A stretch of 32,000 nucleotides of DNA, from the NCBI RefSeq assembly GCF_007625075.1, contig NZ_QMIE01000002.1:155873-187872 (forward strand). Reading direction: 5' to 3'. The position numbers and the translations under genes are program-made. The stretch comes from Oceanidesulfovibrio indonesiensis. Lineage in GTDB: Bacteria > Desulfobacterota > Desulfovibrionia > Desulfovibrionales > Desulfovibrionaceae. Shown here piece after piece: positions 9,514 through 21,226 of this stretch; the stretch's first letter is position 1, and each line of letters begins with the position of its first letter. The notes beneath the pieces are model-generated. The model worked only from the letters and a program-made list of their open reading frames with translations. It searched no databases and had not been told where the DNA came from.

Positions 9514-9554
9514 CGCTTCCGCATCCGCTACGCCTCTGCCCGGATGCGGAAGCG
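9514..9554 (+). promoter_or_regulatory. Perfect 14-bp stem-loop between dctM and eutB
   Basis: CGCTTCCGCATCCG (9514-9527) pairs with CGGATGCGGAAGCG (9541-9554), with a 13-nt loop. It starts 19 nt after the dctM stop and no U-tract follows. Confidence 0.5.
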
Positions 9555-9628
9555 CCACAGGCGAAATGTCCATACTGCGGGACCGGCGCCCCGGAAAAGG
9601 AGCGCGGGTTCAGGGGAGAACGGATACA

Positions 9629-10978
9629 ATGAGCTTGCGCGAACTCATGGCCAAGGCAACGCCGTTGCGATCCGGCGACGTGCTGGCCGGCGTGGCCGCG
9701 GCGACGGAAGAGGAGCGGGTGAAGGCTCAGATGCGGCTGGCGGATGTGCCGTTGAAGAGATTTCTCAACGAATGCGTCATCCCGTACGAGGAGGACGAGG
9801 TTACCAGGCTCATCATCGACGAACACGACGCCGAAGCCTTTGCGTCGGTAAGCAGCTTTACCGTAGGCCAACTGCGGGACTGGCTGCTCACGGACCAGGC
9901 GTGCCCCGACACTCTGGAAGCGTTGGCTGCTGGACTCACCCCGGAGATGGTCGCCGCCGTGAGCAAGCTGATGCGTGTGCAGGATCTCATTCTGGTGGCG
10001 TCCAAATGCCGCGTGGTCACGCGGTTTCGGAACACCATCGGGCTGCCGGGGCGCTTCTCCGTGCGTCTGCAGCCCAACCACCCCACGGACGACCTCAAGG
10101 GCATAGCCGCCTCCACCCTGGACGGCCTGTGCTACGGCTGCGGGGACGCCGTCATCGGCATCAACCCGGCCACGGACAACCTGGAGAACATTTCGCGGCT
10201 TCTGTGGATGCTGGACTCCATCATCCAACGGTACGAAATACCCACGCAGAGCTGCGTGCTGACCCACGTGACCACCACGGTGGAGGCCATAGGGCAGGGC
10301 GTGCCCGTGGACTTGTGCTTTCAATCCATTGCCGGCGCGGAGAAGGCCAATTCGAGCTTCGGCATCAACCTGGCCATGCTCCAGGAGGCGTACGAGGCAA
10401 CTCTCTCGCAAAAGCGCGGCACGGTGGGCGAAAACGTCATGTACTTCGAAACGGGGCAAGGCAGCGCGCTTTCGGCCAACGCACATGGCGGCGTGGATCA
10501 GCAGACCCTGGAGGCGCGAGCCTATGCAGTGGCCCGCAAATACAAGCCCCTGCTCGTGAACACGGTAGTGGGCTTCATCGGGCCGGAATACCTGTTCAAC
10601 GGCAAGCAGATCCTGCGCGCCGGGCTGGAGGACCATTTCTGCGGCAAGCTCCTGGGGCTGCCCATGGGCGTGGACGTCTGCTACACCAACCACGCCGAGG
10701 CCGACCAGGACGACATGGACACGCTGCTGACCCTGCTGGGCGCCGCAGGATGCAACTTCGTGATGGGCATTCCCGGAGCCGACGACATCATGCTCAACTA
10801 CCAGTCCACCTCCTTCCACGACGCCGCCTATCTGCGCAAGCTATTGGGATTGAAACCTGCCCCTGAGTTTTCGGAGTGGCTGGAACAGGTCGGTGTGCTC
10901 GATGCGCAAGGAGGGCTGCGGTCCATCGAAGGCGGCAATGCGCTGCTCGCGCTCCCCAGGTATCTGGAAACCACATGA
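9629..10978 (+). CDS. eutB: Ethanolamine ammonia-lyase large subunit
   Basis: Internal ATG 9629 of ORF 9566..10978. Strong identity by eye to E. coli EutB across the whole length (LRSGDVLAGVAAA, RLQPN, GDAVIGINPA, YFETGQGSALSA, VNTVVGFIGPEYL, IRAGLEDHF, CYTNHA, DDIMLNYQ). Confidence 0.95.
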   Translation: MSLRELMAKATPLRSGDVLAGVAAATEEERVKAQMRLADVPLKRFLNECVIPYEEDEVTRLIIDEHDAEAFASVSSFTVGQLRDWLLTDQACPDTLEALAAGLTPEMVAAVSKLMRVQDLILVASKCRVVTRFRNTIGLPGRFSVRLQPNHPTDDLKGIAASTLDGLCYGCGDAVIGINPATDNLENISRLLWMLDSIIQRYEIPTQSCVLTHVTTTVEAIGQGVPVDLCFQSIAGAEKANSSFGINLAMLQEAYEATLSQKRGTVGENVMYFETGQGSALSANAHGGVDQQTLEARAYAVARKYKPLLVNTVVGFIGPEYLFNGKQILRAGLEDHFCGKLLGLPMGVDVCYTNHAEADQDDMDTLLTLLGAAGCNFVMGIPGADDIMLNYQSTSFHDAAYLRKLLGLKPAPEFSEWLEQVGVLDAQGGLRSIEGGNALLALPRYLETT

Positions 10979-11790
10979 CCAAGCCGGCAGAGAACGCCAT
11001 GAAAAAGAAACAGTCACCAGTCACACCGGATGGGTGGAGCGAGCTGAAACAATTCACGGATGCGCGGATAAGCCTGGGCCGATGCGGCTCCAGCCTGCCG
11101 CTCTCCGAGGCCCTTTCGTTCCGGCTGGCTCATGCCCGGGCCAGAGACGCAGTGTGGAGCCCATTCAATGCGGAAGGACTGTCCGCTGATATCGAGGCGC
11201 TGGGGTGTCGCTGCCTGCGTCTTGCAAGCAGCGTGACGGATCGCAGTGAATACCTCACCCGACCGGACAAGGGCCGCCGGCTCGGCGAGGAATCCCGCGC
11301 GCTGCTCGAAAAAGAATCGACGGGCTATGATTTGTGCCTCGTGGTGAGCGACGGGCTATCCTCCCGCGCTATCAACGAGAATGCCGTGCCGTTTCTGGAG
11401 CGCTTTCTGCCACTGACTCGCGCGGCAGGCCTGACCGTGGCTCCAGTCTGCCTGGTGGAAAACGGCAGGGTGGCCATTGCCGACGAGGTAGCGTCAATTC
11501 TGGAAGCCAAGCTTACGGCAATCCTCATTGGCGAGAGGCCAGGCCTGAGCTCGCCCAACTCCATGGGCATTTACATGACCTACGCACCCAGGCAGGGCGC
11601 AACTGACGAAGCTCGCAACTGCATATCCAACGTGCGCCAAGGCGGCATGACCATCGAGGCCGGGGTGCAGAAGCTCGCGTATCTCATGGAAACGGCGTTT
11701 CGGATGCAAACGTCGGGCGTAGCGCTCAAGGATAAAATGTCGCCGGACTACCTGCCGTTCGGCGGATTGGACGCGGCACTGGGTCGGTAG
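10975..11790 (+). CDS. eutC: Ethanolamine ammonia-lyase small subunit (no long N-terminal extension)
   Basis: ATG 10975 overlaps the eutB stop (ATGA). EutC blocks are present: YLTRPDKGRRL, VVSDGLSSRAI, LIGERPGLSSP, CISNVRQGG. It is 271 aa against 295 aa in E. coli and lacks the N-terminal microcompartment-targeting region. Confidence 0.93.
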   Translation: MTKPAENAMKKKQSPVTPDGWSELKQFTDARISLGRCGSSLPLSEALSFRLAHARARDAVWSPFNAEGLSADIEALGCRCLRLASSVTDRSEYLTRPDKGRRLGEESRALLEKESTGYDLCLVVSDGLSSRAINENAVPFLERFLPLTRAAGLTVAPVCLVENGRVAIADEVASILEAKLTAILIGERPGLSSPNSMGIYMTYAPRQGATDEARNCISNVRQGGMTIEAGVQKLAYLMETAFRMQTSGVALKDKMSPDYLPFGGLDAALGR

Positions 11791-15492: not shown

Positions 15493-16140
15493 ATGAGTTC
15501 ACGCCAATTCTTCAAAGAGATGGCCGGGACGCTCGGCCGCGAAGTTCGCAAGGCCAAGGGCGCGATCCGGGAATATGCCGCGGGACCGCACACCATCGGC
15601 ATCGGCAATCGTGAGCTGACCCGCCTCGACTCGCGTCTGGCGTCCATCATATCGGACAAAGGAGTGGAGAATCTCAAAGTCCGGCTCAGACAGGATTCCA
15701 TGCACGTCACTGGTCGGTTCACTGCGCGGGTCGGCGGCGCATTCGATGTGGACCTCGTTCCGGACGGCATTATCTGGGAGGAAGGCAACCACGTGCTGTT
15801 CTTCAGGATCGCCAGACAGGACGTGGTAATGGATGGCAGGGTGATGAACGCCTTGCAGGTTGCGGTGTCCCGCACGTGCAACGCTCTGTTCGGAGACGCC
15901 TTCCTGAACGAGAAACTGGGCGTGGTGGACAAGGACGGTCGCCTGCGCATCCCGCTGGACGGTGAGGATTCCCGGCTGGACGCCATTATCGACTCCATGG
16001 AGTTGCATTCCCTGGAGTGTGTGGACGAGCGTTTGCGCATCACTTTTTCGCCCAGGCTGAAGCAGGCCATGACGCACGCGAAAACCGTATGGCGCTGGTG
16101 GCGGGAGCGTGGAAAGCAGGACGAAACCGGCAACGTTTGA
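15493..16140 (+). CDS. Hypothetical protein (215 aa), no family recognised
   Basis: Strong G/C third-position bias in this frame and a balanced amino-acid composition. The overlapping minus-strand ORFs are Ser/Arg/Pro-rich shadows. No visible SD. Confidence 0.6.
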   Translation: MSSRQFFKEMAGTLGREVRKAKGAIREYAAGPHTIGIGNRELTRLDSRLASIISDKGVENLKVRLRQDSMHVTGRFTARVGGAFDVDLVPDGIIWEEGNHVLFFRIARQDVVMDGRVMNALQVAVSRTCNALFGDAFLNEKLGVVDKDGRLRIPLDGEDSRLDAIIDSMELHSLECVDERLRITFSPRLKQAMTHAKTVWRWWRERGKQDETGNV

Positions 16141-16158
16141 TTCCGCATCACTGCGGAA
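16141..16158 (+). promoter_or_regulatory. Stem-loop immediately after the stop of the 215-aa gene
   Basis: TTCCGCA-tcac-TGCGGAA, a 7-bp stem starting 1 nt after TGA 16138-16140. It shares TTCCGCATC and TGCGGAAGC with the hairpin at 9514-9554. Confidence 0.4.
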
Positions 16159-16474
16159 GCCTCCAGGCCGTGCCGCGCCTGGAGCGGTGCCGTCCGGTCC
16201 TCTGCCATGCCGTGCGGGCGGCGACTTACTTGTTGCTGCGCACCGTGATCCACCCCGGAACTGGTATTGTTCGGCACGAGGGCGCCGGCCACGTGCTCAC
16301 GCGCCTTTCATCGTGCAGGCTCTTCGGAGTCGAGGACGTCCTTTGGACTGTAAAGCAAGGACGCAATAATTCTCTCCACAACTCCCGGACTTCGAACGCC
16401 GGAAGGCTGTCGCGACGGCTTTACAGAGCATCGGGGCAGGATTATGAAGAAAAAAACATACCCCGAATACGACC

Positions 16475-16639
16475 ATGCGTGAACTACAGAATTTCAAGGA
16501 CTTGCAGCACGATCTCCCAGCTCTGCCAGCTCGCGGTGCCGGAGGCTGTGAGTCTGCAGACGCCGCCCCCTGCTGAGGCCCGAAAACCGAGTCCGGTTTC
16601 GGGCTCCACGACAAGCCTGGCTATCGCATCGAGCCCTTT
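16475..16639 (+). CDS. Hypothetical N-terminal extension of HgcA requiring TGA 16574-16576 to be read as selenocysteine
   Basis: Same frame as hgcA. ATG 16475 gives MRELQNFKDLQHDLPALPARGAGGCESADAAPC-TGA-GPKTESGFGLHDKPGYRIEPF, then GTG 16640. No canonical start lies between the TGA and 16640. G/C at third positions is 16/21 after the TGA. See findings for counter-evidence. Confidence 0.35.
16577..16605 (+). promoter_or_regulatory. SECIS-like stem-loop directly 3' of the in-frame TGA
   Basis: GCCCGAAAACCG-AGUC-CGGUUUCGGGC: 11 bp with one bulged A (16583) and a 4-nt loop AGUC (16590-16593). It begins 1-2 nt after the TGA. In form it resembles the E. coli fdhF SECIS (bulged U, GGUC loop), but the loop is about 5 nt closer to the UGA. 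Confidence 0.4.
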
Positions 16640-17653
16640 GTGGATGGCTTCCACGAGACCGCCGCAGGGCCGGCGCCGAGAGTGCGCATACGGCCGGAAT
16701 CGAGCGCCGTATGGGGAACGATCAAGGCGCGGTGCGGTCTGCGGACCAACTACAAGGTGACGCCCGGCCTGTATTGCGCGGGCTCGCCCGGGCCGGATTC
16801 GCCGGCGCTCGTCACCTGTAATTACAAGCTCACTTTCGACCACCTCCGTTCGAAACTGGATGGCATCGACGCCTGGATCGTGGTCCTGGACACACATGGC
16901 GTCAACGTCTGGTGCGCGGCGGGCAAGGGGCTCTTCGGAACGGACGAGGCCGTGGAGCGGGTGCGCAGCTGCGGCCTGGACCAGGCTGCGCCGAACGCGC
17001 CGCTGGTGTTCCCGCAGATGGGCGCCACCGGCGTGACCGGCCTGGAGGTAGCCAAACGCACCGGCCGGAAGGTTCATTTCGGTCCGCTCCGCGCAGCCGA
17101 CATCCCCCGATATATCGAGAACGGTTTCAAAGCGGACGAGTCCATGCGCCGGGTGACGTTCTCTCTGGCGGAACGCGCCGTATTGGCTCCGGTGGAATTT
17201 CTGCTTCTGGCCAAACCGCTGGCCTTCGTCGCGCTCGCCATTTTCGCGCTTTCGGGGATCGGCCCCGGTTTCTTCTCGTTGAATGGCGCATGGACACGGG
17301 GGCTGGCCGGATTCGGCGCCACGCTGCTGGCGTGCATGGCCGGCGGGGTGGTCGCGCCCATCCTGCTGCCGTGGCTTCCGGGACGTGCGTTCAGCCTCAA
17401 AGGCGGGCTCACCGGCGCGGTCTCGGGGCTGGCGGCCGTGTGGCTGTGGGCCGGAGGATTAGCAAGCGGAACTGCGCTCCTGTTGTGGTCCATGGCGCTG
17501 AGTTCCTATCTGTGCATGAACTTCACCGGTTCCACGCCTTTCACATCGCCGTCCGGCGTGGAAAAGGAGATGCGGCGGTACATGCCGTGGCAGATCGGCG
17601 CGGCCGGGCTGGCGTGCGTGTTGTGGATAGCCGCGGCTTATCTGGAGAGATGA
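16640..17653 (+). CDS. hgcA: Mercury-methylation corrinoid protein HgcA (core from the first canonical start, GTG 16640; the true start may lie upstream)
   Basis: The diagnostic cap-helix motif GVNVWCAAGKG is present. Also PGLYCAGSPGPDSPALVTCNYKLTFD and a C-terminal domain with about five TM helices. It is followed by hgcB with overlapping stop/start. Confidence 0.93.
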   Translation: MDGFHETAAGPAPRVRIRPESSAVWGTIKARCGLRTNYKVTPGLYCAGSPGPDSPALVTCNYKLTFDHLRSKLDGIDAWIVVLDTHGVNVWCAAGKGLFGTDEAVERVRSCGLDQAAPNAPLVFPQMGATGVTGLEVAKRTGRKVHFGPLRAADIPRYIENGFKADESMRRVTFSLAERAVLAPVEFLLLAKPLAFVALAIFALSGIGPGFFSLNGAWTRGLAGFGATLLACMAGGVVAPILLPWLPGRAFSLKGGLTGAVSGLAAVWLWAGGLASGTALLLWSMALSSYLCMNFTGSTPFTSPSGVEKEMRRYMPWQIGAAGLACVLWIAAAYLER

Positions 17654-17940
17654 TGCGAGATTTCAGGCATTATGATGGCGTAGCCACGCTGAACCTGAAC
17701 GAGGACGCCTGCGTGGGCTGCGGATTGTGTCCGCAACTGTGTCCGCACGGCGTACTGGCGATGGACGGGCGCAAAGCGCACATCGTGGACCTGGACGGCT
17801 GCATGGAATGCGGCGCCTGCGCCAGGAACTGCCCGGCGCAGGCATTGTCCGTAAAGCCGGGCGTGGGATGCGCTGCGTACATCATTCAGGTCTGGCTGCG
17901 GGGCACCAGATACGCCGACGCGAAATTTTCCTGCTGCTGA
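17653..17940 (+). CDS. hgcB: Mercury-methylation ferredoxin HgcB (2x[4Fe-4S])
   Basis: GGAG 5 nt upstream of ATG 17653 (alternative ATG at 17650), overlapping the hgcA stop. Motifs CVGCGLCPQLCP and CMECGACARNCP, a conserved GVGC Cys at residue 73, and a C-terminal vicinal Cys94-Cys95 (..KFSCC*). This numbering equals what I remember for the ND132 protein. Confidence 0.93.
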   Translation: MRDFRHYDGVATLNLNEDACVGCGLCPQLCPHGVLAMDGRKAHIVDLDGCMECGACARNCPAQALSVKPGVGCAAYIIQVWLRGTRYADAKFSCC

Positions 17941-17990
17941 CAGGGGAGCCGTCTGGCAGCCGAAAACGGAAGTGTCTTTGATTTCAATAT

Positions 17991-18034
17991 AAACGCAAGA
18001 GGTTGCGAGTGCATGCTCACAATCCCTTGCGTTT
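17991..18034. terminator. Bidirectional terminator-like structure between convergent hgcB and arsC
   Basis: AAACGCAAG (17991-17999) pairs with CTTGCGTTT (18026-18034). Inner pairing is also possible (GGTTG/CAAtCC, GAG/CTC). It is flanked on both sides by T/A-rich TTTCAATAT. Confidence 0.45.
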
Positions 18035-18115
18035 CAATATGCGAATGCGGTGCTGCAATGAAGAGCAGGCGCCGCCTGCCTCTGCGCTGAACGCTCTGCC
18101 GGACCGCCCGCACCG

Positions 18116-18610
18116 TTATTCGGACGTCGCCCGACCTTTGATGTCCGCCGTGTTCCAGATGCTGTTGAGCCGCCCCTTGTTCGGGTCCTTGTACCAGGCG
18201 ACGAAGTCCTTCATGAGCGCCTTGATCTCGTCGCGTATCTCGCGGACCTTGGCGAGTTTTTCCTCGTGAGAGCCCTCAAGGGTTGACGGGTCCGGGAATG
18301 GCATGTGCAGGCGGTGCGTCATGCCCGGGAAGATGGGGCAACTGCCGCCTTCGGAATCGCTGCACACGGTGATTACGGCGCCGTAGGTATGGCCTTTCTT
18401 GAAGAGCTCGAACACGGACTGGGTCTTTTTGTCCGAAAGATCGACGCCTTCCTCCTCCATGGCCTCGACCACGAGCGGATTGATAACCCCGGGCTCGAAG
18501 CCGGCGCTCTCCGCCGTGATCTCGCCATTCGAGAGCAGTTTGACGTACTCTTCGGCCATCTGGCTGCGTGCGCTGTTGTGAACGCAGACGAACAACACGT
18601 CCTTTTTCAT
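18116..18610 (-). CDS. arsC: Arsenate reductase, LMW-PTP (thioredoxin-coupled) type
   Basis: Internal ATG (18610) of ORF 18116..18670. P-loop VLFVCVHNSARSQMAE and a downstream Cys pair VCSDSEGGSCP. Last gene of the arsR-acr3-arsC unit. Confidence 0.85.
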   Translation of the reverse strand: MKKDVLFVCVHNSARSQMAEEYVKLLSNGEITAESAGFEPGVINPLVVEAMEEEGVDLSDKKTQSVFELFKKGHTYGAVITVCSDSEGGSCPIFPGMTHRLHMPFPDPSTLEGSHEEKLAKVREIRDEIKALMKDFVAWYKDPNKGRLNSIWNTADIKGRATSE

Positions 18611-18635
18611 GCGAATACTCCGTAAGGTTGGTATG

Positions 18636-19742
18636 TCAGGTGGTTTCCGGGGCGGGTTTGCAGGCCACATGGCACACCCCGGCTGGCGTCTCCACGGCGT
18701 ACGGGAAGAACCGGCGCTTGAAGAACAGCGCCACGTTCACCAGCCCGATGAGCACCGGCACCTCCACGAGCGGACCGATGACCGCGGCGAAGGCCACGCC
18801 GGAATCGATGCCGAAGACCGCGATGGCCACGGCGATGGCCAGTTCGAAGTTGTTCGAAGCCGCCGTGAAGGAGAGCGTGGTGGACTGCTCGTAAGTCGCT
18901 CCTGCCTTCATCGAAAGGAAAAAGGAGATGAGGAACATGACGAGGAAGTAGATGCAGAGCGGCACGGCGATATGCAGCACATCGAAGGGCAGTTCCACCA
19001 CCTTGTCGCCCTTGAGCGAGAACATGACGAGGATGGTGAAGAGCAGGAACACGAGCGTGAGCGGACTAATCTTTGGGATGAAGACCTCTTCGTACCACTG
19101 CTGGCCCTTCACCCTGAGCCCGATGAACCGGGACGCCATGCCGGCGATGAAGGGGATGCCGAGATAGATGAACACGGACTCGGCGATCTGGCCCATGGAG
19201 ATGTCCACAACCACGCCTTCCAGGCCGAACCAGCCGGGCAGCACGGTGATGAAGACCCATGCATACACCGAGAAGAAGAGCACCTGGAATATGGAGTTGA
19301 AGGCCACAAGGCCAGCGCAGTATTCGCAGTCTCCCTTGGCAAGGTCGTTCCACACGATGACCATGGCGATGCAGCGGGCCAGGCCGATGAGGATGAGGCC
19401 CACCATGTACTCGTGCTGGCCGGAGAGGAAGGTGATGGCCAGAAGGAACATCAGCACCGGGCCGATGACCCAGTTCTGCACCAGCGAGAGCCCGAGCACC
19501 TTGGCGTTGCGGAAGACATGGCCGAGTCGCTCGTACTTCACCTTGGCCAGCGGCGGGTACATCATGAGAATGAGCCCGATGGCGATGGGGATGTTCGTGG
19601 CGCCCACCTGGAAAGCGTTTATCACGTCCTGTACGCCTGGGGCGAGATAGCCGATACCCACGCCCACGAACATGGCGAGGAAAATCCAGAGGGTCAGGAA
19701 CCGGTCGAGGAACGAAAGTTTTTTGATGACGTTTTCGGACAT
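18636..19742 (-). CDS. acr3: ACR3-family arsenite efflux permease
   Basis: 368 aa. [24 protein letters not shown]...[14 protein letters not shown]... is the typical ACR3 N-terminus, with 10 predicted hydrophobic segments. Confidence 0.9.
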
Positions 19743-19762
19743 TGTTGCTTCCTTTGATGGAA

Positions 19763-20128
19763 TTAATCACATTTCGCGGCGTCTTTCGTTTCGAAATGGT
19801 GACGAAGTCGCGATTCGTCTCCTCGGGCTTCAGGGAAATCGTGCAACGGCGAACCGGGGCCGGTGAGCATCTCCGCCACGCTGCCCGCCAAGTGGGAGTC
19901 CTGCTCGGCAAGGCGGTAGTACATCCACTTGCCGCCGCGCCGGCCGGCAACGAGTCCGGCATGCCGGAGCGTGGCGAGATGACGGGAGACGGTGGACTGC
20001 GGCATGTCCAGAGCGGCCATGATGTCGCAAACGCACAGCTCCCCGTGAGTCAGGCAGCGCAGAATGCGTAGCCTGGTGGGATCGGCCAGAGCCTTGAAGA
20101 AAAATGCGAGGGTTTCCATGTCGTTCAT
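19763..20128 (-). CDS. arsR: ArsR/SmtB-family metalloregulator with an ELCVCD As(III)-type site
   Basis: Internal ATG 20128 (or 20119) of ORF 19763..20284. [31 protein letters not shown]...[17 protein letters not shown]. Confidence 0.88.
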
Positions 20129-20256
20129 TATAGTATGCGCCTTCCGGGATGGTTCTCTGGAGCGTCGTGCGCTCAAGATGGGCGTGGCACCTGCCGTGGC
20201 TGCAGATACGTGTCCCGCCCACAAGCGCCCGGAGAAGTAAAGCCGTTTATCGCATG

Positions 20257-20284
20257 ATTGTATCCGCTTATGCGGATTTGTCAA
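20257..20284 (-). promoter_or_regulatory. Near-consensus sigma70 promoter with a palindrome in its spacer (candidate ars promoter and ArsR operator)
   Basis: The minus strand reads TTGACA-aATCCGCataaGCGGAt-TACAAT (16-nt spacer). The inverted repeat is ATCCGC-N4-GCGGAT at 20262-20277. It lies about 130-155 nt upstream of the arsR ATG. Confidence 0.5.
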
Positions 20285-20332
20285 TGGTGTGTGTAAAGAA
20301 AGACGGCCCTCTATGCGAACGCACTTATCGCC

Positions 20333-21226
20333 TCAGCCGACAAAATCTACCAGATACTTCAAAGCCGTAAGAATGACGACGGTGGCGAGCATCCACTTGA
20401 GCGCCTGAGCGGGTACGAACTTCTGGAGGCGGGCGCCGCAGTAGGTTCCGGCCAGCCCGCCGATGCCGAAAAGAAGCCCGAGGACCCAGTCCGGCGCTAC
20501 GGAGAGATGCGGATAGAACGGCGCCAGGGCTTGATAGAACGCCACCCCGGCCACGGACGTGGCGAAGGTCGCCATGAGCGTGACGCCGGCGATGGTGTGC
20601 ACCGGAAGACCGATAATGGCCACGAGGAACGGCGCCATGATCGCGCCGCCGCCGATGCCGTAGGTTCCTCCCAAGATTCCCACGACGAGGCTCAGGGCAA
20701 AGACCGTGCGCGGCGAGCAACTGTACTTTTGGCCCTGGTACTCGTACGCGATGCTCCGCATGCACGTCTGCAGGACGTGGACTCGCGCGGACCGCGCTCC
20801 AGTTTCTCCGGCGCTGTGCTGTCCGCGTCGTTCGGCAAGCAGATTGCGCACCATCCGAGCGCCGATGAGCAGCAAGACCAGAGCGGCGAACGCCTTGAAG
20901 GACGCAGCATCCGGCAGCAAGGCAACCCGGATGATTGCCCCCGCGAAAACTCCGGGCAACGTTCCGGCGAGAACGGTCCAGGCCAGGGGCCAGACCATGC
21001 GTCCTTCGCGCACGTACTGGTACACGCCGCCGGGCGTGGCGACCACGTTGAAGAGCTGGTTCGTGGCGCTTACGGAAGGAGCGGTGTAGCCTAGAACAGA
21101 CATCTGGAACGGCAGGAGCAGAAACGCCCCGGACACGCCGCCCATGGACGTGACCAGGGAGATGCCGAATGCGACGGCGACCGGAATCCAGGGCGCGACT
21201 TCGATGCCCGCGGCTGGGAAGTGCAT
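20333..21226 (-). CDS. TauE/SafE-family anion (sulfite-type) exporter
   Basis: 297-aa membrane protein. GISLVTSMGGVSGAFLLLPF...GGTYGIGGGAIMAPFLV... shows the duplicated TauE/SafE pattern. Confidence 0.8.
   Translation of the reverse strand: MHFPAAGIEVAPWIPVAVAFGISLVTSMGGVSGAFLLLPFQMSVLGYTAPSVSATNQLFNVVATPGGVYQYVREGRMVWPLAWTVLAGTLPGVFAGAIIRVALLPDAASFKAFAALVLLLIGARMVRNLLAERRGQHSAGETGARSARVHVLQTCMRSIAYEYQGQKYSCSPRTVFALSLVVGILGGTYGIGGGAIMAPFLVAIIGLPVHTIAGVTLMATFATSVAGVAFYQALAPFYPHLSVAPDWVLGLLFGIGGLAGTYCGARLQKFVPAQALKWMLATVVILTALKYLVDFVG

Follow-up and report, generated by a model that had tools for sequence, protein, structure and literature searches.

HgcA makes methylmercury, a bioaccumulating neurotoxin, and here we describe the gene that encodes it in a 32,000-nucleotide stretch of Oceanidesulfovibrio indonesiensis DNA (contig NZ_QMIE01000002.1, positions 155,873 to 187,872; hereafter the window, whose own numbering is used), in which a UGA codon upstream of the database start very likely encodes selenocysteine (Sec). 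The proposed full-length hgcA lies on the forward strand at 16475..17653 and comprises 392 sense codons, with Sec at codon 34 and a TGA stop at 17651-17653; the stretch GPKTESGFGLHDKPGYR, on the same strand, belongs to this long form of the proposed HgcA. The product that databases hold starts at GTG 16640..16642 (+) and has 337 amino acids (aa), being an exact match to GenBank TVM19312.1, listed as 'hypothetical protein DPQ33_02835' of Oceanidesulfovibrio indonesiensis. Against the NCBIfam hidden Markov model NF040863, HgcA scores 380.9 bits (cut-off 275) over residues 69-388 of the 392-aa protein, and the whole of this match is also contained in the 337-aa form. The cap-helix motif NVWCAAGK is present (family motif N(V/I)WCA(A/G)GK, with the Co-ligating Cys), its Cys being residue 147 in the long numbering and residue 92 in the short one, the latter as given in a preliminary description of this DNA made from the letters alone. 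The following gene, hgcB in its Cys form (17650..17940, +), begins at an ATG that overlaps the hgcA stop (ATGA) and reaches 119 bits against NF040864 (cut-off 99). The HgcB translation ends in ...KFSCC, a C-terminal Cys-Cys, and has GVGC, with Cys, at a site that is Sec in some HgcB proteins (~6% as reported).

Read directly, the hgcA frame runs ...ESADAAPC, with TGC at 16571-16573 and TGA at 16574-16576, followed by GPKTESGFGLHDKPGYRIEPF and then GTG 16640. A-P-C-U-G-P-K is encoded at 16565-16585, the TGC-TGA pair (16571..16576, +) supplying the codons of a putative Cys-Sec dipeptide within PCUGP, and this is the single in-frame UGA upstream of the formerly annotated hgcA start; the wider context of the Sec site is ...ADAAPCUGPKTESGFGLHDKPGYRIEPFV. 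The 21 sense codons GPKTESGFGLHDKPGYRIEPF between the UGA and the database start (16577..16639, +) include no ATG, GTG or TTG, and their third positions are G or C (GC3) in 16/21 cases in the hgcA frame versus 13/21 and 9/21 in the other two frames. Upstream of the TGA the same frame contains ATG 16475, the first possible start downstream of an in-frame stop at 16445. The preliminary description had already pointed to the start-free codons, the GC3 counts, ATG 16475 and the TGC before the TGA, and our recount agrees with it in every figure. Since hgcA itself ends at TGA, this codon would be an ordinary stop elsewhere in the genome, and the recoding would be local rather than the product of a variant genetic code. 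Decoding of the UGA by other means, either near-cognate read-through as Trp or Cys or a variant code, has no specific support; apart from the normal use of TGA as the stop of hgcA, the UGA aligns specifically with Cys and a hairpin accompanies Sec-form loci only (see below), and we find such decoding hardly credible.

The DNA of relatives was fetched and translated upstream of the called starts. The close clade consists of nine distinct members, with HgcA proteins 66-96% identical, and TGC/TGT-TGA lies within PCUGP in 9/9 of them, followed by [KRQ]T[EAV]SGFG. The TGA is kept in L001-L005, L030-L032, L034 and L035. Farther away, [PIV]CUGP is found in the distant loci L018, L020, L021, L028 and L029 (including Desulfovermiculus, Desulfonatronovibrio, Desulfonatronospira and Dethiosulfatarculus) and [AS]CUTP in clostridial loci, and the C-U pair occurs in Desulfonatronovibrio-, Dethiosulfatarculus- and Clostridium-type loci as well, with Cys-Cys instead of C-U in L006, L007, L009 and L013-L016. 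When pairwise codon differences downstream of the TGA were counted among the nine close sequences, 222 were synonymous and 132 non-synonymous in the hgcA frame, the corresponding figures for the other two frames being 23/316 and 38/275. These counts indicate that the stretch after the TGA is under protein-level purifying selection. Judged across the relatives, the TGA and the coding context around it exceed chance by a wide margin. Given this coding signature, the shared KPGY..FV and the fact that in 8/9 relatives no start codon occurs from the TGA up to the Val of PFV, the 21-codon stretch appears to be translated and to be enterable only via the UGA.

The upstream start is homologous among relatives: the window has MRELQNFKDLQ, L003 has MRELHQYEELQ, L030 has MQELQHFKDLQ, and L032 and L034 have (V)KDLNE. 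L003 and L030 thereby conserve the N-terminus M[RQ]ELQxFKDLQ. Of seven relatives whose upstream start contexts were compared, five (L003, L004, L005, L032 and L034) have a GGAG(G) Shine-Dalgarno sequence at normal spacing before this start. In L030, the gene caller annotated the 33-codon open reading frame (ORF) that ends at the UGA (1462-1563) as a separate 33-aa gene, a signature typical of a split selenoprotein gene.

A protein search with a query beginning just after the TGA returned closest relatives called at 319-341 aa together with many homologues of ~400 aa, at ~55% identity and with 99-100% query coverage including the 21 extra residues. The N-terminal arm of the ~400-aa homologues ends in ...EVCCGSPPGPQSS.EKPGY..FV, and P0113, an example, has DDAPCCGPPAGPASSIHEKPGYRLCRFVEKF where the window has ADAAPC-U-GPKTESGFGLHDKPGYRIEPFVDGF. 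An alignment with homologues had been proposed in the preliminary description, and in ours (MAFFT, 24 N-termini) the U shares its column with the second Cys of CCG[SP], the flanks DDAP and KPGY..FV also align, KPGY..PF is conserved and homology to the Cys forms continues on both sides of the UGA. The long Cys-form HgcA proteins (~400 aa; P0013, P0113, L006, L007, L009 and L016) have their arm architecture in common with the window: a start of the type M-x-[DE]-L, a variable linker, the CCG[SP] or C-U site, and [EDH][KR]PGY..FV. They differ in having Cys in place of Sec, no hairpin after the Cys codon and, often, extra N-terminal Cys clusters (ECCxxxxC). In the AlphaFold model of the Cys-form P0013, residues 1-41 have a predicted local distance difference test score (pLDDT) <50, residues 39-40 are the CC pair, and the corrinoid-binding domain has its first strand from residue 62 on; because this CC lies in the low-pLDDT N-terminus, the Cys-Sec pair is predicted to sit on a flexible arm. 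As a separate observation, the Cys forms P0010-P0047 have a second Cys cluster near the N-terminus (e.g. QNNECCSGDSC), which resembles the 'Cys packing' of the literature and is absent from the Sec forms of the Oceanidesulfovibrio clade.

The conservation of the UGA, the alignment with Cys, the coding signature and a published PCUGP pentapeptide (see below) all support the Cys-Sec extension of HgcA suggested in the preliminary description, and we consider it highly probable, on comparative sequence evidence, that UGA 16574 encodes Sec in a 392-aa HgcA of O. indonesiensis. The start of hgcA is very probably 55 codons earlier than the databases give, GTG 16640 would most likely encode an internal Val, and the 337-aa database protein would be an annotation truncation due to the UGA having been read as a stop. 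The preliminary description had counted the canonical length of the enzyme of strain ND132 against an extension; this length reflects the same truncation, according to the published work on Sec-HgcA. A short HgcA alone could also be imagined, starting at GTG 16640, with UGA 16574 as a true stop or part of an untranslated leader and the upstream similarity as a relic. This would fit GenBank and the gene callers, which give 319-341-aa proteins for the close clade, as well as the confinement of the NF040863 match to the 337-aa form. It would leave unexplained the strong coding signature of the 21 codons before the GTG and the KPGY..PF residues that they have in common with the long Cys forms. Furthermore, no Shine-Dalgarno sequence is visible before GTG 16640, as previously noted, the internal starts chosen by gene callers differ among relatives, and the TGA persists from lineage to lineage, whereas a relic would be expected to decay. 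A short HgcA as the sole product is therefore very improbable.

The production of two isoforms, the long Sec form together with a short 337-aa form from GTG 16640 (e.g. under selenium limitation), is compatible with Sec at the UGA and has to be weighed separately. Bacterial UGA recoding is generally inefficient, and the Val codon is GTG in 9/9 close relatives. This GTG is equally found in 4/4 Cys-form genes, which need no alternative start, and the Val codon is GTT, GTT, GTA and GTC in four other Sec-form genes; for these reasons the conserved GTG was rejected as a Sec-linked internal start. As the GTG also has no Shine-Dalgarno sequence before it, a second isoform seems unlikely.

Around the upstream start, a 12-codon upstream ORF (uORF), MKKKTYPEYDHA (16444..16482, +), overlaps ATG 16475. 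Its existence, reported in the preliminary description, was confirmed, and it is lineage-specific: it is present in the window and in L001 (a 97.8% identical relative) and missing at the equivalent place in L003, L004, L030, L032 and L035. The accompanying idea that it couples translation was thus rejected as a conserved feature, not holding outside the species-level clade. The window/L001 clade is without the GGAG(G) Shine-Dalgarno sequence that most relatives checked have before the upstream start, and has the uORF. A promoter scan of 16000-18200 gave no sigma-70-like site and is consequently uninformative on the transcription start. A 247-aa ORF (16017-16760, +), in the +1 frame relative to hgcA, spans the intergenic region and the 5' end of hgcA and is probably a spurious ORF of G+C-rich DNA, although over 16475-16573 its GC3 (25/33) exceeds that of the hgcA frame.

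Sec insertion in bacteria would call for a selenocysteine insertion sequence (SECIS), and two mutually exclusive hairpins can be drawn just downstream of the UGA (offsets are counted from its U). Hairpin A (16578..16604, +), singled out in the preliminary description, has 11 bp, a bulged A at 16586 and an AGUC loop at 16590-16593 (+17 to +20); its form was confirmed, and it is the minimum-free-energy fold at -17.6 kcal/mol. Hairpin B (16589..16606, +; GAGUCCG-GUUU-CGGGCUC, 7 bp; -11.2 kcal/mol) spans +16 to +33, with its GUUU loop at +23 to +26. Across 9 distinct relatives hairpin B is paired in 63/63 cells; it is the main helix of the RNAalifold consensus, and an unbiased scan for uninterrupted hairpins ranked it best in each of the nine close Sec forms. 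One of its pairs (+17/+32) is A-U in 7 sequences, C-G in 1 and U-G in 1; either variant replaces an amino acid on each side, E by A and L by C in one case, E by V and L by R in the other. Two more pairs toggle between Watson-Crick and G-U. Hairpin A has 3/11 pairs broken in most relatives and 79.8% of cells paired, no better than shuffles, and was rejected as the conserved SECIS. The comparative evidence hence favors hairpin B, not hairpin A, as the most likely SECIS candidate.

That SelB nevertheless recognizes hairpin A in O. indonesiensis is a minor possibility. Hairpin A accounts for essentially all of the ensemble, A-like folds are the minimum also in L030, L031 and L035, and nearly all relatives can form its apical CCG/CGG stem. 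Only hairpin B explains the correlated changes at +17/+32 (A-U to C-G and to U-G), and, besides its broken pairs, hairpin A starts at +5, so that, judging from the general size of ribosome footprints, its lower stem would lie inside the ribosome with the UGA in the A site. Thermodynamics alone cannot validate either hairpin, since shuffled sequences fold comparably: the folding energy of a 76-nt stretch has z = -1.1, with 29/200 shuffles folding at least as well, and the comparison is not significant for stretches of 60-76 nt.

A more general association supports hairpin B as the candidate. In 20/20 Sec-form loci a hairpin follows the UGA, its loop starting at +20 to +28 (lineage-specific outside the close clade), and in 6 Cys-form loci it is absent or weak at the equivalent place; most Sec-form loops contain a G, e.g. 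GGA, GUU, AGGUC, UGGAC and CGGGA. This association of hairpin and UGA is the best evidence that the hairpin acts as a SECIS, a role that the comparisons suggest. The rule behind bSECISearch is a stem-loop 3' of the UGA whose apical loop contains a G and lies some 16-37 nt away, a range that includes the loop of hairpin B and also that of hairpin A. Like the SECIS of E. coli fdhF, hairpin B is a small stem-loop that follows the UGA immediately on its 3' side and is itself coding sequence, and its apical loop has a G at +23, ~20 nt from the UGA (G23 in fdhF). It differs from fdhF in having no bulged U and a G-N-U-U loop (the second base being U, G, A or C among relatives) instead of GGUC. The loop of hairpin A, at +17, is about 5 nt closer to the UGA than that of fdhF. 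The SelB of Desulfovibrionaceae may have different requirements.

Several points weigh against Sec insertion at this codon or against hairpin B as its signal. Upstream of the TGA, GC3 over 33 codons is 19/33 in the hgcA frame, the value given in the preliminary description, versus 25/33 in the +1 frame, a weak indication of coding, and no Shine-Dalgarno sequence is visible before ATG 16475 in O. indonesiensis, again as first described. The covariation of hairpin B rests on two sequences, and a score as high as the observed one arose in 10/500 shuffles. The free RNA of O. indonesiensis favors hairpin A over hairpin B by 6.4 kcal/mol. Hairpin B takes over as the minimum-free-energy fold only with the first 15 nt blocked; with 9-13 nt blocked it does not. 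A ribosome paused at the UGA might melt hairpin A and expose hairpin B. Rfam 15 gave no match in the whole window at gathering thresholds, and at E up to 10 the region 16400-16750 gave only chance-level matches to unrelated small nucleolar RNAs and microRNAs; this negative says little, because we know of no bacterial SECIS family in Rfam. The 32-kb window has none of selA, selB, selC and selD: it contains no tRNA, and a scan of its 20 larger ORFs yielded no sel gene. Our literature search found no experimental, protein-level confirmation of a Sec-HgcA, and a search combining Oceanidesulfovibrio and selenocysteine gave no match. Finally, and in favor of a short HgcA alone, the HgcA of ND132 cloned in E. 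coli supports methylation in lysates, according to a 2024 PNAS paper; if that clone followed the short gene model, which is assumed only, the arm would not be strictly required for catalysis.

The existence of Sec-HgcA is already known. Haft and Gwadz (bioRxiv 10.1101/2022.07.06.499078; J Bacteriol 205:e0025922, 2023) state that most HgcA proteins are selenoproteins, that 20 short HgcA genes, including that of ND132 and GSU1440, can be extended through a single UGA to 363-400 aa, that PCUGP is perfectly conserved and lies upstream of the annotated start, that Sec machinery is encoded in all 20 species examined, and that reference data were added to the NCBI Prokaryotic Genome Annotation Pipeline (PGAP) for re-annotation of these proteins. 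The preliminary description, which knew of no Sec-containing HgcA, was mistaken on this point. HgcA (NF040863) appears among the selenoproteins with a CU motif in a 2026 review, which cites Haft and Gwadz as J Bacteriol 205:e0025922, and the 2024 PNAS paper says that HgcA proteins 'may be selenoproteins'. The window gene agrees with the published Sec-HgcA of ND132 (DND132_1056) and Geobacter (GSU1440) in its single upstream UGA and identical PCUGP, in a length of 392 aa that is within 363-400 aa, and in the existence of Cys-Cys homologues; the ND132 site (...DDAPCUGPRPDPRAGVFEKPGYAVEPFV) and the GSU1440 site (PCUGPKTPAVSG) are similar to the window sequence after the UGA. The differences touch nothing essential: the window is without an upstream Shine-Dalgarno sequence and has the uORF and a competing, stronger hairpin. 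Every feature that could be checked for membership in the HgcA family and in the published Sec-HgcA form was found in the window gene, which is thus an ordinary family member.

To this known picture the present analysis adds a corrected gene model for O. indonesiensis and a conserved SECIS candidate that differs from the hairpin found by eye and is testable for the Desulfovibrionaceae-type gene; the available HgcA passages of Haft and Gwadz name no specific SECIS. It also adds the species-specific lack of a Shine-Dalgarno sequence together with the uORF, and wider variants of the Sec-site motif. The latter include, beyond PCUGP, ICUGP (L021), VCUGP (L029), ACUTP (Clostridium L022-L024), SCUTP (L025), SCUDV (L027), NCUVI (L017) and possibly C-D-U (L026), each with its own small hairpin after it. 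Variation at the Sec site is greater than the published description of PCUGP as 'perfectly conserved' implies.

In the mechanism that we propose, translation would start at ATG 16475, and the UGA at 16574-16576 (codon 34) would be recoded to Sec by SelB and Sec-tRNA(Sec), with SelB bound to the stem-loop just downstream, most likely the 7-bp hairpin 16589-16606 with its loop from +23. The 392-aa product would have a flexible arm at its N-terminus, and on it a Cys33-Sec34 pair (PCUGP), separated by ~20 residues from the first strand of the corrinoid-binding domain. The arm could capture Hg(II) and pass it on towards the methyl-corrinoid and the C-terminal Cys-Cys of HgcB. The function of the arm is most likely soft-metal handling, which we infer, as we do Sec insertion itself. 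The most economical view of its function, a pair of soft-metal ligands that captures Hg(II) and hands it off, has been put forward in the literature (bioRxiv 10.1101/2022.07.06.499078). Vicinal Cys-Sec or Cys-Cys pairs on a flexible segment also occur in SaoL/SaoB/SaoC, in MerT-family selenoproteins and at the C-terminus of HgcB, and proteins with such CU/CC pairs, like HgcA, handle Hg or organometallics. The C-terminal CC of MerA is another vicinal-thiol metal-handling motif. The arm of HgcA differs from all of these (SaoL/SaoB/SaoC, MerT-family, HgcB and MerA) in having no homology to them. A bolder and tentative proposal, which we put forward as a possibility, is that the Cys-Sec arm is a dedicated Hg(II) acceptor and that Sec insertion is gated by a ribosome-dependent switch between the two hairpins. 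The putative acceptor of the methylation complex, a disordered arm, may draw Hg(II) away from cellular thiols through an affinity enhanced by Se and, together with the C-terminal Cys-Cys of HgcB, deliver it to the methyl-corrinoid; in the putative switch of O. indonesiensis, hairpin A may be the free-mRNA fold and hairpin B the SECIS fold.

Other genes lie in the window. Directly downstream of hgcAB and on the opposite strand there is an arsenic-resistance-like cluster (18116-21226, -), made up of a low-molecular-weight phosphatase/ArsC-like gene (18116-18670, -), an ACR3/SBF transporter (18636-19742, -), an ArsR/HTH_5 regulator (19763-20284, -) and a TauE-family gene (20333-21226, -). In the relative L030 an HTH_5 gene is divergent from hgcA, and an ArsR-like regulator of hgcAB has reportedly been found in ND132. 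Additionally, EutC, the ethanolamine ammonia-lyase light chain, is encoded at 10876-11790 (+). A 440-aa ORF just upstream of it (9544-10866, +) gave no Pfam match, and the true EutB may be ORF 9566-10978, which overlaps it in a different frame.

If the native enzyme has the Cys-Sec pair, constructs based on the short gene model omit a potential Hg-binding site, and catalogues of hgcA genes built from 5'-truncated calls miss the N-terminal arm. The pair, if true, would provide a direct molecular link for Hg-Se antagonism. These implications for constructs, catalogues and the Hg-Se link were all pointed out already in 2022-2023. Furthermore, if the arm is an Hg(II) acceptor, selenium status would directly tune microbial methylmercury production.

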